DNA from: a virus
Lineage: Duplodnaviria > Heunggongvirae > Uroviricota > Caudoviricetes
IMG/VR virus record: IMGVR_UViG_2663763286_000014
Span: 1-7,603 of that record
Reading direction: 5' to 3' (one strand)
Length of the DNA stretch: 7,603 nt
Of the stretch, positions 1-7,603 are shown one piece after another. The notes below the pieces were generated by a model. The model ran no database searches, was not told the origin of the DNA, and saw only the letters and a list, made by a program, of their open reading frames with translations. The translations under genes were made by a program, and so were the position numbers. Position 1 is the first letter of the stretch. The number at the start of each line of letters is the position of its first letter.

Positions 1-327
1 TCATTTTTTCCAGAGGCGGTCGAACTCCGCCTTCGCAAAATAAGCGGAAGCCTGGCGAAGGATATCGTTACTGCGGCGCAGTTCACGATTTTCACGTTCC
101 AGCTCTTTCAGACGCTGACGTTCAGCGGTGGTGAGTCCACCATCACCACTCCCGGTATCCCGCTCATGCTGACGAACCCACACACGCAGAGTCTCTGGTG
201 TACAGCCAATCTTTGGGGCAATGGAACAAATTGCCGCCCATTGTGAGTCATATTCGCCCTGACTTTCCAGAACCATACGAACTGCCCGTTGACGGACCTC
301 GGGGGAAAAACGTGTATTTTTAGTCAT
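1..327 (-). CDS. IS3-family transposase OrfA (HTH DNA-binding subunit, 108 aa)
   Basis: Complete [25 protein letters not shown]...[36 protein letters not shown], with the N-terminal HTH and C-terminal leucine-zipper-like region typical of IS3-family OrfA (recognised as IS629/IS1203-type). SD AGAGG lies 8 nt upstream of the ATG at 327. The ORF ends WKK-stop over an A-rich run (GGAAAAAATGA) at the window edge. Confidence 0.9.
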
Positions 328-381
328 CCTGTTTACCTCTTTCTCAGGGAGTTTAGTCTCCAGGATTTCCGGGGCGGTTCA
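1..381 (-). mobile_element. Left end of an IS3-family insertion sequence (IS629/IS1203-like); the rest of the element lies beyond the window start
   Basis: Reverse complement of 328-381 reads TGAACCGCCCCGGAAATCCTGGAGACTAAACTCCCTGAGAAAGAGGTAAACAG, a typical IS3-family terminus (5'-TGA...) that matches the IS629 left end as I recall it, with about one difference. It is followed directly by an OrfA-type transposase gene. The element/host junction is at 381/382. Confidence 0.85.
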
Positions 382-806
382 GTACAACCAGCATGATCTT
401 CTATGAGCATCTTCAGCCACGAGTTCTCCTCCGCCAGCGTCACGCGACTGGCCTCCAGTTCTGCTACGCGCTGTTTTGCAGCATCCAGTTCAATCGACAA
501 TTTTTCCAACTGCTCTTTATGCTTTTTATATTCCTGATATGCGTGCCAAGACTGACCTTTGCGCACACTATCAGTGATATCAGCAACCTGCTCTGGTGTT
601 AGCGTGGTCAGTGGCTGTGCTGGGAAAATAAGCACTTTCCCGGAATCCCAATCAAAACCAGCATGAATTGACTGAACCTCAACTGAAGGTGTTGAACCAA
701 TGCTGCCAGGCGAATGAACAACGATCGTTACATCCATATCGCGACGATGGCTGTGGTTGTTGGACAAAATACGATTCACCAACTCAGAAAATTTGGAGAA
801 TTTCAT
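382..806 (-). pseudogene. Phage hypothetical protein (coiled-coil C-terminal part), 3' end truncated by the IS insertion
   Basis: ORF 333-806 starts at the ATG at 806 (SD TGAGG, 6-nt spacer) and reads without a stop across the IS junction at 381; the last ~16 codons ([16 protein letters not shown]) are IS-encoded. The native C-terminus is therefore missing. The native part (~141 aa) has a heptad-like stretch, KEQLEKLSIELDAAKQRVAELEASRVTLAEEN. Confidence 0.6.
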
Positions 807-814
807 GCGGAGCC

Positions 815-1225
815 TCAGTATGTAAAATAGACAGTTGCCACGCCGTTATAGTGATCAAACGATACGGCATTTACTTCGTAGCTGGCAGGGAGCTTCGATC
901 CGAGAACGTATCCGGGCCACGTTTTCCATGGAATTTCTCTGCGCTCACTATCGCCATATACCGTACATCCCAGAGAGCCTACAGCTTCATTAGAACGCGT
1001 GCCGCACGTTATGAATCCCAGATTTTGCTTACTGCTCTTAATGGTGATTGGGTGAACGCTGGCTGATGCATTAGCAGCACGCTGTGCCTGTTGGTTTGCG
1101 ATATTCGCAGAGTTCGCAGCAGCTACAGCAGCCGTAGTCGCGGCGGTAGAGGCTACAATAGCTGCTGAAGCATGCACTTGTTGGATATTCACCAACAATG
1201 CCGCGACAAAAATCATCTTCTTCAC
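815..1225 (-). CDS. Secreted/periplasmic protein with signal peptide and Ala-rich low-complexity linker (136 aa)
   Basis: N-terminus MKKMIFVAALLVNIQQVHA-SAA is a classic Sec signal peptide with an AxA cleavage site and no lipobox cysteine. It is followed by an Ala/Asn/Gln-rich linker, then a ~70-aa domain with two Cys. The start overlaps the upstream stop in an ATGA arrangement (1222-1225), indicating translational coupling. Confidence 0.7.
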   Translation of the reverse strand: MKKMIFVAALLVNIQQVHASAAIVASTAATTAAVAAANSANIANQQAQRAANASASVHPITIKSSKQNLGFITCGTRSNEAVGSLGCTVYGDSERREIPWKTWPGYVLGSKLPASYEVNAVSFDHYNGVATVYFTY

Positions 1226-1572
1226 TTGTCAGCTCCTTTGCGAATCTGTTCCGCCCATTCTTCAAGGGATTTCTCCGCATATTCACCGGACAGGCCATCA
1301 ATCGGGTACGGTTCATTAGCCAACTCTTCTTTCGCTGACAGAATCATGCGTGTAACGTCGAAAACTTCACGCAAAGACTTATTGATAAATCCGTGATTGA
1401 AAGCAGCAGCAAGACGGCTTGCGGTATAGTTAATACCCTCGTTGCGAGCCTCAGCACGTACTTCATCGAATTTACGCACCAGATACTCAGCATTTGTTTC
1501 ATTCACTTTCAGATCTCGCGGTACACATTTCCCGCGAAGAAACCCTTCCATTTCGAAAACATTCATGCGCAT
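1222..1572 (-). CDS. Hypothetical phage protein (116 aa; possibly YfdS-like)
   Basis: ORF MRMNVFEMEGFLRGKCVPRD...; charged, helical-looking sequence. The ATG at 1572 has GGAG 8 nt upstream; an alternative ATG at 1566 forms an ATGA overlap with the stop of the upstream HD-domain gene. Tightly packed within the leftward operon. Confidence 0.7.
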   Translation of the reverse strand: MRMNVFEMEGFLRGKCVPRDLKVNETNAEYLVRKFDEVRAEARNEGINYTASRLAAAFNHGFINKSLREVFDVTRMILSAKEELANEPYPIDGLSGEYAEKSLEEWAEQIRKGADK

Positions 1573-2099
1573 TTGCGTAACTCCGATAACTCGTTAAAAC
1601 GTTCCATAAACATCCCATAGGCATGGCCTGGCGACAGTGGAATAACTTTGAACATCTCTGTTGCCGGGATACCTTCCAGTACAGGCCAGAAAGAGCCATC
1701 ATCAAGCCCGAGATCGCGGCGTTCGGTTGCCAGCATAATGAGATCGGCATATTTCACTGGCGTGCTCATAACAGGAGGTAACCCGTATTTCTCACGGATT
1801 ACGGCGTCTATTTTTTCTTCCATCTGTTTATAGTCAGGAAGAAGGCGTTTCAGTGGCGCGGGGATGTCCTGACAATACGCTTCTGTTGCATCATGCATTA
1901 ACGCTTCAAAAGCAAACTCCTCCGGAACCAGTTTGCTGCAAAGCACCGCATGTTGGGCGACGCTGTAGAAGTGTGAAAGATGACCGGCAAAGCGACAGAT
2001 ATTTGAAAGGGAAACTGCGATATCGTTAATCACGATGTCGTCTTTATTTATCCTGTCATAATAAAAATGCTTCCCGGAAAAAGTTTTAATAAATGACAT
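1563..2099 (-). CDS. yfdR: HD-domain phosphohydrolase (YfdR-like 5'-deoxynucleotidase family, 178 aa)
   Basis: Contains H...H (HFYSVAQHAV) and HD (LMHDATEAY) metal-binding motifs characteristic of the HD superfamily. Start chosen at the internal ATG at 2099 (MSFIKTF...) because it has GGAG with a 6-nt spacer; the longer 199-aa extension to 2162 has no RBS. Length and neighbours (274-aa and 120-aa genes) match my memory of the CPS-53 yfdP-yfdQ-yfdR block; the symbol is from memory, not a search. Confidence 0.8.
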   Translation of the reverse strand: MSFIKTFSGKHFYYDRINKDDIVINDIAVSLSNICRFAGHLSHFYSVAQHAVLCSKLVPEEFAFEALMHDATEAYCQDIPAPLKRLLPDYKQMEEKIDAVIREKYGLPPVMSTPVKYADLIMLATERRDLGLDDGSFWPVLEGIPATEMFKVIPLSPGHAYGMFMERFNELSELRKCA

Positions 2100-2227
2100 T
2101 TTGTTCTCCACTTTATATGCGCTGCACCGCGCTGAATTTTGGTTAAAGAAAACCCTCGCCATCAGGCGATTATTGAGTTAATTACGTTTCCATAAATGCC
2201 CCCGCAGGGGCATTTGCAGTAATGAAA

Positions 2228-3052
2228 TCAGGCGGTGAAAGTACCAATAAAGGTTTCTACTTTGCTGTCTTTGAATTTCTCAACAAGCAGATCACGAAAT
2301 TCGTTAGCCATTTCTTCCTGCATCGCTTCCAGCTGAATAATGCGCAGAACCAGTACAGGACGATCGCCAGTGATAATGCTGAGGCGTAATTTAAACGGAC
2401 GTTCTTTCAGGCCTTCAAACGGAACGCATTTAAATTCAAATGCCACTGGCATAATGTCTTTGGTTTTCGCTTCGACAGACTCCATCAGAGAGCGTTTGCC
2501 GCTGAAGTCATTGTCTTCAAAATCAGCGGTCTGGTTTGCTTCAATTGTGATTTTACGGACTGCCGCAGCCGCTTTGGTTGCCTGAATGGTGTCACCATTA
2601 GCATCAAAGCCCACAAGGTAGTCGGCCCAGTCTTCAATCCATTCTGCCAGTGACTTCTGGGAGTTACGCTCGCCATTAACAGACAACAGAGCAGAAAACG
2701 GTGCTGTCTTTTTCAGTTTGAGGGTGGCGGTGTTATCTGCGTGACCTGGTTCATCAATAGTACCCAGGTTAAGCACACTGACGGCTCGCATATTATCGGC
2801 ATCGATAAAGCAGCGGGTGCCTTCATCTGCAAGATCTTTAGAATAACGGGTAAAGTCATCGATGCTGGCAGTGGAAAGCGCACCACGGAAACGGAAGCGA
2901 TTTAAATTAAATTTTTCCAGATCATGAATGCGGAAATTCTCAGGCAATGCCACAGCATCGGCACCAATCTTACTGATAATTTCATTAACACCCTGAGCAG
3001 AAATAAGGGCATGGATTTGATTAATTGCGGTTGCGTCTAAGTTCTGAGACAT
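2228..3052 (-). CDS. yfdQ: Hypothetical phage protein, YfdQ-like (DUF2303-type, 274 aa)
   Basis: Long uninterrupted ORF with protein-like composition. Strong SD (GTGAGGA, 6-nt spacer) before the ATG at 3052. Same length as K-12 YfdQ as I recall it, and sits next to the HD-domain gene; function unknown. Confidence 0.8.
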
Positions 3053-3117
3053 AATAAGTCCTCACTATATAAAGATATTCAGTGATGAGATAAATAATCA
3101 GTTAATTAAGAACGATA

Positions 3118-3480
3118 TTAATGACCTGCTGCGCGGAGTTTTCCGTCAGGTTCACCGGCAAGAGTCAGTAATTGTCCCTGGTCTTCCTGCAGAATAGTCA
3201 GGCGACCACCGCGATTGACATACATCGGTGTTTCGGTGGTGTCTTCTTCGGAAATTTTCCCGCGGTTAGTCGGGCGAACATATGAGAGTTTGTGTTTGAT
3301 TTTCACACGGTTCTCATCAAATGGTTCGATTTCCAGGTTGAGCGAGACCTTACCTTTGGTTTTCGTGTTCATCACACCGGAAGCGACTTCACTGAGAACA
3401 GCGCCGATTTTGGTTTCAAATACGCCGCCGTCCAGCTCCCCGATAAATGCCTGCACATCAGTACTGCGTTCGCTAGCCAT
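3118..3480 (-). CDS. Hypothetical phage protein, YfdP-like (120 aa)
   Basis: ORF MASERSTDVQAFIGELDGGVFETKIGAVLSEVASGVM... starts at the ATG at 3480 with strong SD GAGGAG (7-nt spacer). The ORF-track extension to 3798 (226 aa) upstream of this ATG looks like non-coding sequence (Arg/Cys/Leu-rich, GC-rich, no RBS). Confidence 0.8.
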   Translation of the reverse strand: MASERSTDVQAFIGELDGGVFETKIGAVLSEVASGVMNTKTKGKVSLNLEIEPFDENRVKIKHKLSYVRPTNRGKISEEDTTETPMYVNRGGRLTILQEDQGQLLTLAGEPDGKLRAAGH

Positions 3481-3917
3481 TTTGCTGCTCCTCATCATAT
3501 CGACCCTGCAAGGTCGGTTGGTTTCTCCACAAAACAGAGAAGAACACCTGCGGTGACAGCCGCCCGGATGGATTGGGTTATGAGCCCGTCGTCCGGTGAT
3601 GCTCTTCTCTGTTTTGTAAAAAGAGCGGTACCAGCCGGAAGCAAGGGTACAAACTGGTACCGCCAGGACTACACACAGCATAAAGTTGTGGTGCCGGGTG
3701 CCTCCCGGTGCCTGGCGAAGGTTGCACACCAGGCGGGTGGGTATCCACAGAAGGTCGACTGTCAGCCTCAACCTTAACCCGCGTGCGCTGAGCCGCATTC
3801 ACCACAACGCTAAGGATTCTCTCTGGTTGAAAATACTTAGCTGTTATGTGCCTGTCTTTTCACCACTTCAGGCTCGGTGGTATCCTTTTAAGCCCGTATA
3901 CATAAAAGGAAAATCAA
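3481..3917. other. GC-rich structured non-coding island (candidate regulatory RNA/processing region) between the yfdP-like gene and an 81-aa gene
   Basis: No protein-like ORF in any frame. Perfect 15-bp inverted repeat (3529-3543 ACAAAACAGAGAAGA / 3603-3617 TCTTCTCTGTTTTGT) enclosing ~59 nt. 10-bp GC-rich stem 3625-3634/3654-3663 built on three GGTAC(C) units. Tandem 10-mers CCGGGTGCCT/CCCGGTGCCT at 3694-3713. Confidence 0.35.
3611..3663 (-). terminator. Candidate intrinsic terminator for leftward transcription
   Basis: On the minus strand: stem GCGGUACCAG, 19-nt loop, CUGGUACCGC, followed immediately by UCUUUUUAC. The loop is long for a canonical terminator, and the palindromic GGTACC units allow alternative pairings. 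Confidence 0.3.
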
Positions 3918-4711: not shown

Positions 4712-5398
4712 TTACCAAGTGCGCGATGACCAGAATACTCTACCTATAACGTGAATTCTGGAACGCCTATCTTCGAAGGTGAGTATTTCATCTGGATACT
4801 CATCTTTATTGAAACTTCTTAGAATCAGACCACCGTCAGGTAAATTGATCAATATTTTAACTCTAAGTAATACGCCATCACGTATAGCATAAAGATCCCC
4901 ATCACGAATAGGAACTGTTTGGGAAACATCAACAGCAACAAAATCTCCATTGTTAAGTACAGGTAGTAAACTATTACCCCAAATTTTTACGATCTTTGCA
5001 TTGGAGACACATACACCAGCTTTTCTTAAATCAATCCTTCTTAGCGGGAACCAGTCTACAGTTGATTCAACTATTTCAGCCAAACATCCATTACCCGCTG
5101 ATAACTCGACATCTAGGACAGGAATGTTTGCAAAAATGTCAGGATCTAATGTTGTACTTTCAGCCTCCTTTACAACAAGGTCTGGGAAAGACGCGTTATC
5201 CTCAATGCCCAATTGCAACCACTTTTGAGAAACCCCTAACACTTTAGCAATCTCTTTAATTTTCCGAGGCTGTTGAGTTTCTCCATTCTCGATTTTTGCT
5301 ACGGATTGTTGTGAAAGCCCAATTTTTTCAGCTAGTTGCGCCTGACTCATTCCTGCTTTTTCTCTTTCGCTTTTTAGTCTTTCTGCCAATGTTTTCAC
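4712..5398 (-). CDS. CI-like prophage repressor: N-terminal HTH (XRE family) plus C-terminal S24 LexA-like autopeptidase (228 aa)
   Basis: HTH region MSQAQLAEKIGLSQQSVAKIENGE. Putative Ala-Gly cleavage site (LSAGNG). Ser nucleophile in GNSLLP and Lys in LLRVKIL, as in LexA/lambda CI. GTG start at 5398 with SD GAGGGGG (7-nt spacer). Divergent from the cro-like gene. Confidence 0.92.
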   Translation of the reverse strand: MKTLAERLKSEREKAGMSQAQLAEKIGLSQQSVAKIENGETQQPRKIKEIAKVLGVSQKWLQLGIEDNASFPDLVVKEAESTTLDPDIFANIPVLDVELSAGNGCLAEIVESTVDWFPLRRIDLRKAGVCVSNAKIVKIWGNSLLPVLNNGDFVAVDVSQTVPIRDGDLYAIRDGVLLRVKILINLPDGGLILRSFNKDEYPDEILTFEDRRSRIHVIGRVFWSSRTW

Positions 5399-5535: not shown

Positions 5536-5784
5536 ATGACACCTGAGCAATTAGCCTTATCAGAGGCAATCGCTCTGGCTGGTGGTCAATCAGAATTGGC
5601 TCGGAAGCTCACAGCCAGCAGTGGTCGTTTAGTAAAGCAACAACATGTCTGGAACTGGTTGAACAGAGAAAAGCGTCCCCCTGCAAAGCTCTCGATATTC
5701 ATTGAAATGACCACTGGCGTATCAAAAGAAAAATTACGTCCAGATATTTTTCAAAAGATTAAAGACTTATCAGATGGAAAGTAA
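5536..5784 (+). CDS. Cro-like/YdaS-family HTH regulator (82 aa)
   Basis: ATG at 5536 with AGGAG 7 nt upstream. Small HTH protein (GGQSELARKLTASSGRLVKQQHVWNW). First gene of the rightward operon, divergent from the CI-like repressor. Confidence 0.85.
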   Translation: MTPEQLALSEAIALAGGQSELARKLTASSGRLVKQQHVWNWLNREKRPPAKLSIFIEMTTGVSKEKLRPDIFQKIKDLSDGK

Positions 5785-6702: not shown

Positions 6703-7603
6703 ATGAGCCTGTTAATGACATCCCAGCCCATTGTGATAAATCGTGATCTTGCATGCCGTATTGGTCTGAATGAGGCAATTGTGTTGCAGCAGCTTCATTA
6801 CTGGCTGAATGAAACGAATTCAGGCACTGAGCATGGCGGAATTCGCTGGGTTTATAACACGACAGAACAGTGGCTGGAGCAGTTTCCGTTCTGGTCAGAG
6901 TCCACTCTGAAACGCACATTTGCAAGCCTGAAATCACTTGGGGTTTTGCGTCGCGAGCAACTCAATAAATCGAAGCGTGACATGACCAATTTCTACACGA
7001 TCAACTATGAAAGTGAGCTTTTAGAAGAGGTCAAAGTGAACGAATCCATCAGGTCAAAATGCACTTCTCCATCGGGTCAAAGTGACCTGATGGATGGGCG
7101 CAAAATGACACGATCCATTGGTTCAAAACGACACGCTGTCATCGGGTCAAAATGGCCCAATGATCTTACAGAGAATACAACAGAGATTACTACAGAGAAT
7201 AAAACCTCTTCTCGTCCGGACGCTTCGCAACCGGACACGCAAACGGCTGAACAGGAGTTTTTAACTCGCCATCCTGATGCGGTTGTATTCAGCCCTAAAA
7301 AGCGCCAGTGGGGAACGCAGGATGATTTGACCTGCGCACAGTGGCTCTGGAAAAAAATCATCGCCCTGTACGAGCAGGCCGCCGAATGTGACGGCGAGGT
7401 GGTTCGTCCCAAAGAACCGAACTGGACAGCCTGGGCAAACGAAATTCGCCTGATGTGTGTGCAGGATGGTCGTACCCACAAACAAATCTGCGAGATGTAC
7501 AGCCGCGTCAGCCGCGATCCGTTCTGGTGCCGTAACGTGCTCAGCCCGTCGAAGTTGCGGGAAAAATGGGATGAGCTTTCCCTGCGCTTATCGCCGTCCG
7601 TCA
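6703..7603 (+). CDS. Lambda-O-like replication initiation protein (replisome organiser), 5' partial; runs off the window end
   Basis: ATG at 6703 with GAGG 6 nt upstream; open frame to 7603 with no stop (checked codon by codon). N-terminal domain MSLLMTSQPIVINRDLACRIGLNEAIVLQQLHYWLNETNSG...WSESTLKRTFASLKSLGVLRREQ is typical of phage replication-initiator N-terminal domains. Origin iterons and an AT-rich tract are embedded in the linker, as in lambda O. Confidence 0.85.
   Translation, partial: MSLLMTSQPIVINRDLACRIGLNEAIVLQQLHYWLNETNSGTEHGGIRWVYNTTEQWLEQFPFWSESTLKRTFASLKSLGVLRREQLNKSKRDMTNFYTINYESELLEEVKVNESIRSKCTSPSGQSDLMDGRKMTRSIGSKRHAVIGSKWPNDLTENTTEITTENKTSSRPDASQPDTQTAEQEFLTRHPDAVVFSPKKRQWGTQDDLTCAQWLWKKIIALYEQAAECDGEVVRPKEPNWTAWANEIRLMCVQDGRTHKQICEMYSRVSRDPFWCRNVLSPSKLREKWDELSLRLSPSV
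7028..7158 (+). repeat. Replication-origin iterons (4-5 copies, core GGTCAAARTG) inside the O-like gene
   Basis: TCCATCAGGTCAAAATGCAC (7045-7064), TCCATCGGGTCAAAGTGACC (7068-7087), TCCATTGGTTCAAAACGACAC (7114-7134), GTCATCGGGTCAAAATGGCCC (7138-7158), plus a partial copy AGAGGTCAAAGTGAACG at 7027-7043. Followed by an AT-rich tract with ACAGAGAAT/ACAGAGATT repeats (7162-7205). Confidence 0.6.

Follow-up and report, generated by a model that had tools for sequence, protein, structure and literature searches.

The insertion sequences IS629, IS1203 and IS3411 are isoforms within the IS3 family, and we take their group to be the IS51 group. Lambdoid prophages integrated in the 5' end of dusA form a second described system, one that Farrugia et al. 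reportedly covered in 2015 in connection with dusA-associated integrases. IS629 sub-types are 4-5% apart in sequence (Rump et al., PMC3271280). Target duplications made by IS629 measure 3-4 bp, and in four O157:H7 genomes 62% of the IS629 copies were located in prophages or prophage-like elements (PMC3271280). In O157 strains, excision of IS629 is described as promoted by an IS-excision enhancer (PMC9943667).

We analyzed a 7603-bp stretch of prophage DNA (the window), which is the entire contig JXWD01000091.1 of the draft assembly GCA_000948825.1. We are highly confident that a single 1310-bp IS629 transposed into codon 142/143 of a 227-codon accessory gene in a dusA-integrated lambdoid prophage, with a 3-bp duplication of the target. 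The element is the IS629 isoform that is multi-copy in O157:H7-type E. coli, and its target is a gene of the leftward early operon that points the same way as the IS. The gene now exists as two chimeric ORFs, one coding for 142 native residues and a 15-residue IS tail, and the other for a 20-residue IS-derived leader, a threonine and 85 further residues. This is an ordinary, already known kind of event, in which a known element entered its preferred type of target. Like other members of the IS629 group in prophages of enterohaemorrhagic E. coli, the element combines inverted repeats, a 3-bp target duplication and a prophage location. It also shares with them the orfA/orfB organization; the length of 1310 bp, the -1 frameshift and the full ALIL pseudoknot were read on identical reference copies and would be expected here. 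The insertion site alone is strain-specific; mechanistically, nothing differs.

The left (orfA-proximal) 381 bp of the IS629-type element occupy positions 1..381 of the window on the minus strand, and the contig ends inside the element. All 381 bases (381/381, 100%) are identical to IS copies of O157:H7 strains, in which the matching element occurs at up to 39 places per record among the genomes listed. A sequence-only reading of this DNA had proposed an IS3-family element, and this identity places it in the IS629/IS1203 isoform group. In the O157:H7 genomes, the annotation of the matching element gives an IS3-family transposase, a programmed frameshift and an ALIL pseudoknot. Because a short-read assembler is unable to resolve a multi-copy repeat, the window stops 381 bp into the IS. 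A full reference copy (L005) is 1310 bp long and carries TGAACCGCCCCGG... terminal repeats on both ends, in agreement with the earlier placement of the IS terminus at position 381. The left terminal inverted repeat lies at 357..381 and reads TGAACCGCCCCGGAAATCCTGGAGA on the minus strand; in the full copy, 22 of its first 25 positions match the right repeat. Read from window position 381, the minus strand begins TGAACCGCCCCGGAAATCC..., and the right IS end, found on a second contig of the same assembly (JXWD01000028.1, or L006), closes with ...GGGGCGGTTCA at position 161. The termini are thus of the IS3 type, with imperfect inverted repeats and 5'-TG ... CA-3' ends. For the copy in the source strain, 381 bp and 161 bp are seen on the two contigs and the central ~770 bp are unassembled; copies with identical ends elsewhere measure 1310 bp.

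The coding content of the element also follows the IS3 pattern. orfA is complete at 1..327 on the minus strand in the ORF listing (108 aa) and codes for a transposase N-terminal domain with a helix-turn-helix (Pfam HTH_Tnp_1, E=1.4e-12); the NCBIfam IS3 transposase model was matched across model positions 1-86. The 296-aa orfB product, with its rve/DDE domains (rve E=7.5e-27), was read on L005. The helix-turn-helix of orfA and the DDE domain of orfB are thus both found, with the rve match seen only on this identical reference copy, and the last 38 codons of orfB in the source strain are visible on L006. Rfam identified the ALIL frameshift-stimulating pseudoknot (RF01497) at full length on L005 (1430-1546, 121.5 bits). 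Position 1501 of L005 corresponds to position 1 of the window, and the first 46 nt of the pseudoknot therefore lie at 1..46 on the minus strand, with the other 71 nt past the contig end. An Rfam scan of the window, in which these 46 nt of ALIL are present, returned nothing at the gathering score.

We compared the element with other isoforms. The IS segment in the window is ~95.5-95.8% identical to Shigella and IS1203-family copies, and this ~4-5% divergence fits the 4-5% reported between IS629 sub-types (PMC3271280). In the Shigella sonnei copy the repeat reads ...CCCCGGGAATCC; in the window, and likewise in an IS1203-family copy from E. coli, it reads ...CCCCGGAAATCC. The difference falls at repeat position 14, where the Shigella sonnei copy has GGG and the other two have GGA. 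It accounts for the earlier remark that the terminus is about one base off IS629, and it is normal isoform variation rather than damage.

The native 5' part of the interrupted gene lies at 382..806 on the minus strand. It matches the chromosomal prophage of E. coli OkiPb01717 (L001) at 100%, and in that prophage the gene is uninterrupted (L001:5744-6427, 227 aa) and its start is annotated at the same place. This identity of 100% covers window positions 380-1300. Along the coding strand, the match to the intact gene spans 427 nt, made up of 425 phage nt and 2 coincidental nt; the latter are window positions 381-380, where the TG of the IS end equals the phage sequence. The junction codon, ACT, consists of two phage nt and one IS nt and still codes for the native Thr142. 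Beyond it come 15 residues encoded purely by the IS, and then TAA at 335-333. Comparison of the ORF listing with the intact relative thus defines a 157-aa chimeric ORF at 333..806 on the minus strand, with 142 native residues and a 15-residue IS-encoded tail. The sequence-only reading described an IS in a leftward early gene of a lambdoid prophage that truncates the gene and adds an IS-encoded tail, and in this it was right. It had counted 16 IS-encoded codons before the stop; the tail and stop are as described, but the new residues number 15, and the remaining codon is the junction codon for the native threonine. Likewise, the insertion was placed at the 3' end of the gene, and it does lie in the 3' third, but at codon 142 of 227 (~63% along) rather than at the very end. 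The C-terminal 85 aa of the 227-aa protein are absent from the chimeric ORF.

The chimeric 157-aa protein occurs on one contig only in an exact-sequence look-up. The junction was found in 0 of 5,426 complete E. coli genomes, and none of the phage records searched for the region covers it. The insertion site is strain-specific. Searches of Pfam and NCBIfam with the chimeric protein returned no family, and three intact homologues searched against Pfam at E<=0.01 gave only a sub-threshold Phage_scaffold match, in one of them (L004). The interrupted gene belongs to PHROGs 6026 and 368, both families of unknown function. We also compared its product to the Ead/Ea22-like early-left proteins. The two share their location, and PHROG 368 is common to the interrupted protein and its Ea22-like neighbour. 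Some homologues carry the UniRef name 'Ead/Ea22-like family protein', and a central coiled-coil-like stretch in the interrupted protein can be recognized by eye from the sequence. In contrast to the neighbour, which matches Pfam PF13935 (Ead_Ea22) at E=1.2e-40, the interrupted protein has neither a PF13935 nor an NCBIfam match. We expect the truncated product to be inactive or altered. As the gene belongs to the variable accessory genes of the early-left region and its function is unknown, the insertion probably has little consequence.

The gene order in the window is that of a lambdoid early region. Five leftward early genes lie upstream of the interrupted gene, at 815..3480 on the minus strand, and code for 136-aa and 116-aa hypothetical proteins, a YfdR-like 5'-deoxynucleotidase, YfdQ/DUF2303 and YfdP. 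All called genes from 333 to 3480 are on the minus strand. A gene for a cI-like repressor with HTH and Peptidase_S24 domains (4712..5398, minus strand) and a divergent Cro/YdaS-like gene (5536..5784, plus strand) together mark the immunity region and show in which direction early-left transcription runs. The interrupted gene lies leftward of this immunity region and is co-oriented with that transcription, as in a lambdoid early-left operon. Relatives carry lambda-like late genes. When the lost C-terminal module was compared with the neighbouring 116-aa protein for signs of paralogy, only a weak 25-residue match appeared (E=0.026).

An additional observation in this region concerns a possible structured RNA. 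Window positions 3616-3838 on the minus strand gave a full-length, near-threshold Rfam match to STnc100 (RF02076; 46.5 bits, gathering score 47, E=1.9e-08). The match falls in a gene-free and relatively GC-rich (0.53-0.56) stretch within the leftward early region, with the yfdP-like gene on one side and the small ORFs below the repressor on the other. It is overlapped by a 226-aa mechanical ORF (3118-3798), whose part upstream of the YfdP start is probably spurious.

We located the other side of the insertion by predicting the proteins that would span the far-side junction for no duplication and for duplications of 2-5 bp, and looking each up by exact sequence. An IS-internal start exists only in the no-duplication and 3-bp cases; the 2-, 4- and 5-bp cases share two short internal-start candidates. 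The only prediction present in the collection was the 106-aa protein for a 3-bp duplication, which was found exactly and consists of MIWQPEFTDKILSRKPGAVH + T + native residues 143-227, that is, a 20-aa IS-derived leader, a threonine and the C-terminal 85 aa. It is encoded at the very start of contig JXWD01000028.1, in the same assembly as the window (GCA_000948825.1). Absent from the collection were both predictions for no duplication (111 and 105 aa), the product of an alternative start in the 3-bp case (112 aa) and the short internal-start ORFs (50 and 39 aa) to which the 2-, 4- and 5-bp cases were limited. These three duplication lengths were excluded because of the junction reconstruction, the look-up giving only the two short candidates.

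The nucleotide sequence of the second contig agreed with this result. The first 161 bp of JXWD01000028.1 are the final part of the IS and contain one mismatch relative to the reference copy. After the right inverted repeat come TAC and then TGCTGTCTGCCC..., which is the missing 3' part of the gene (TGCTGTC...). Ahead of the IS, the coding strand of the window reads ...GGTTGTAC. TAC is therefore present on both IS flanks and marks a 3-bp target-site duplication at window positions 382..384 (GTA on the plus strand, TAC on the coding strand). Removing the IS together with exactly 3 bp makes the sequence identical to OkiPb01717 across the junction, and removing 2 or 4 bp fails to do so. The short direct duplication typical of IS629 is therefore present, at 3 bp. 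These results show a simple (primary) IS629 transposition with a 3-bp target duplication and no loss of phage DNA. Alignment to intact homologues and inspection of the other IS flank, both suggested by the sequence-only reading, recovered the original C-terminus (85 aa), the target duplication and the remainder of the gene on JXWD01000028.1. Neither of the findings that it named as contrary evidence appeared: intact homologues are 227 aa long rather than ending at the junction, and the terminus has IS3-family repeats.

The right end of the IS has a coding property of its own. At L006:103-423, a frame that starts at an ATG 59 nt from the IS629 end overlaps the end of orfB and stays open through the inverted repeat. 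The 3-bp duplication puts this frame in frame with the gene remnant, and the result is called as the 106-aa chimeric ORF.

The left arm of the prophage continues beyond the gene remnant on JXWD01000028.1. It contains genes for an Ead_Ea22 protein, a 62-aa ORF, a dATP/dGTP pyrophosphohydrolase-DUF551 protein and a 3'-5' exonuclease, and next a gene for a 93-aa PrtN-family protein (PF11112) whose match among the PHROGs is family 1300, 'excisionase' (E=3.6e-39). Beyond it lie two small ORFs and a gene with a Panacea domain, and the contig also carries the host genes yjbL/M-like, zur, yjbJ, dinF, lexA, dgkA and plsB. Collinearity of this arm with OkiPb01717, at 97-98%, extends through the excisionase-like gene, the dusA remnant (an annotated 105-bp dusA 5' remnant in OkiPb01717) and the host genes; the exception is a ~0.7-kb mosaic stretch inside the Ea22-like gene. 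The best overall relative of the window is the prophage of FDAARGOS_1058 (92% coverage at 97.7%). Both related strains have a lambda-like prophage with a tyrosine integrase at the far end, adjoining intact dusA.

These features match those of dusA lambdoid prophages. As in that group, a 105-bp dusA 5' remnant next to yjbL/M and zur forms the end of the left arm, and the early-left region contains yfdP/Q/R-like genes, Ea22-like modules, an exonuclease and a small PrtN-type DNA-binding protein. The tyrosine integrase beside intact dusA at the other end is taken from the relatives. The interrupted gene lies upstream of the excisionase-like gene and, on the prophage map of the relatives, far from the integrase. 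The earlier expectation of an integrase leftward of the interrupted gene does not agree with the two related prophages, in which it sits at the opposite end. We infer that the excision functions of the prophage are structurally unaffected.

A recombination module damaged by an IS, as the sequence-only reading had imagined, is found in the OkiPb01717 prophage and not in that of the window. The dusA-proximal integrase of OkiPb01717 is annotated as truncated (L007:37422-42440; NZ_AP042706.1 5074296-5079314), and beyond it come an IS3-family element carrying an ALIL pseudoknot and an ISCro1 (IS66-family) element.

We considered other explanations for an IS at this position. One is that a deletion or rearrangement adjacent to the insertion removed or separated int/xis and trapped the prophage. 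The window by itself ends in IS sequence and would be compatible with such a loss, and IS629 is associated with deletions in O157 (PMC9943667). Against it, the other flank starts with the exact continuation of the gene after the 3-bp duplication. The Ea22-like gene, the pyrophosphohydrolase/DUF551 and exonuclease genes, the PrtN/phrog_1300 gene, the cargo genes, the dusA remnant and the host genes are all present and collinear with OkiPb01717, and the relatives have their integrase at the other prophage end. The idea of a trapped prophage, which the sequence-only reading had raised, is unsupported because the left-arm genes are all present and the integrase of relatives is at the opposite end; we regard a loss of this kind as highly improbable. 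The assumption that the gene is naturally about this length, with the IS merely abutting its end, has in its favor that members of this modular family differ in their C-termini and measure 177-310 aa among the matches listed. However, nucleotide-identical relatives run 85 codons further, the identical 227-aa protein is found on 501 contigs, and the missing 85 codons lie across the IS in the same genome. In a homology search with the intact protein, 227 aa was also the common length among the best 120 matches listed. The intact relatives and the recovered C-terminus rule this reading out, and its probability is negligible.

A third alternative accepts a simple insertion and adds a later event, namely homologous recombination between this element and a second IS629 copy, by which one flank was inverted or translocated and the two halves of the prophage came apart. 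The IS is multi-copy in related genomes, a draft assembly cannot resolve linkage across it, and an inversion between IS629 copies would leave both junctions intact. Yet both junctions are exactly those of the primary insertion, and no positive evidence points to recombination, so that this sequence of events seems very unlikely. Both contigs end inside the IS, and one contiguous copy linking the IS ends would be the simplest reading. The single IS629 insertion with a 3-bp duplication therefore remains our preferred explanation.

The insertion may influence the expression of neighboring genes. The event has placed a 1.3-kb IS between the promoter region of the early-left genes and the excisionase-like gene, which is ~2.5 kb further on. 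Because it is co-oriented with early-left transcription upstream of that gene, a polar effect on the excisionase-like gene is conceivable. A simple scan of the IS found two terminator-like sites, no more than chance (1.2 +/- 1.1 expected), and no promoter-like sites. The RNA fold across the junction showed no unusual structure (z = 0.56). The TAA of the chimeric ORF (335-333) is 5 nt upstream of the orfA ATG (327-325), just after the orfA Shine-Dalgarno (AAGAGG). Given this stop/start spacing and the shared orientation, ribosomes leaving the phage gene after SOS derepression could reinitiate on orfA. We consider it unlikely that the insertion geometry couples IS629 transposase expression to prophage induction in this way. 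On the other contig, the C-terminal module could be re-expressed from the IS-internal start of the 106-aa ORF.

IS629 insertion sites in prophages are strain-specific markers for subtyping O157-type E. coli, and the site described here has little significance beyond typing. It also illustrates a caution for draft genomes. When a draft contig ends in an IS, the assembly has broken at that point, and DNA that seems to be 'missing' has usually not been deleted but lies on another contig. At its right end, the window also breaks in a gene. Positions 6703-7603 on the plus strand hold a partial ORF of 300 residues that is homologous to a 330-aa hypothetical protein in FDAARGOS_1058, and this break is presumably due to another repeat common to the prophages of the strain.

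Close homologues of the interrupted gene and its neighbours (91-98% DNA identity) were also found on many circular records of ~85-110 kb annotated as plasmids, such as pTHO-010-4. The plasmid-borne homologues are flanked by Ea22-like, DUF551 and eaa genes. These circular records may be phage-plasmids that share a pool of accessory genes with chromosomal lambdoid prophages.
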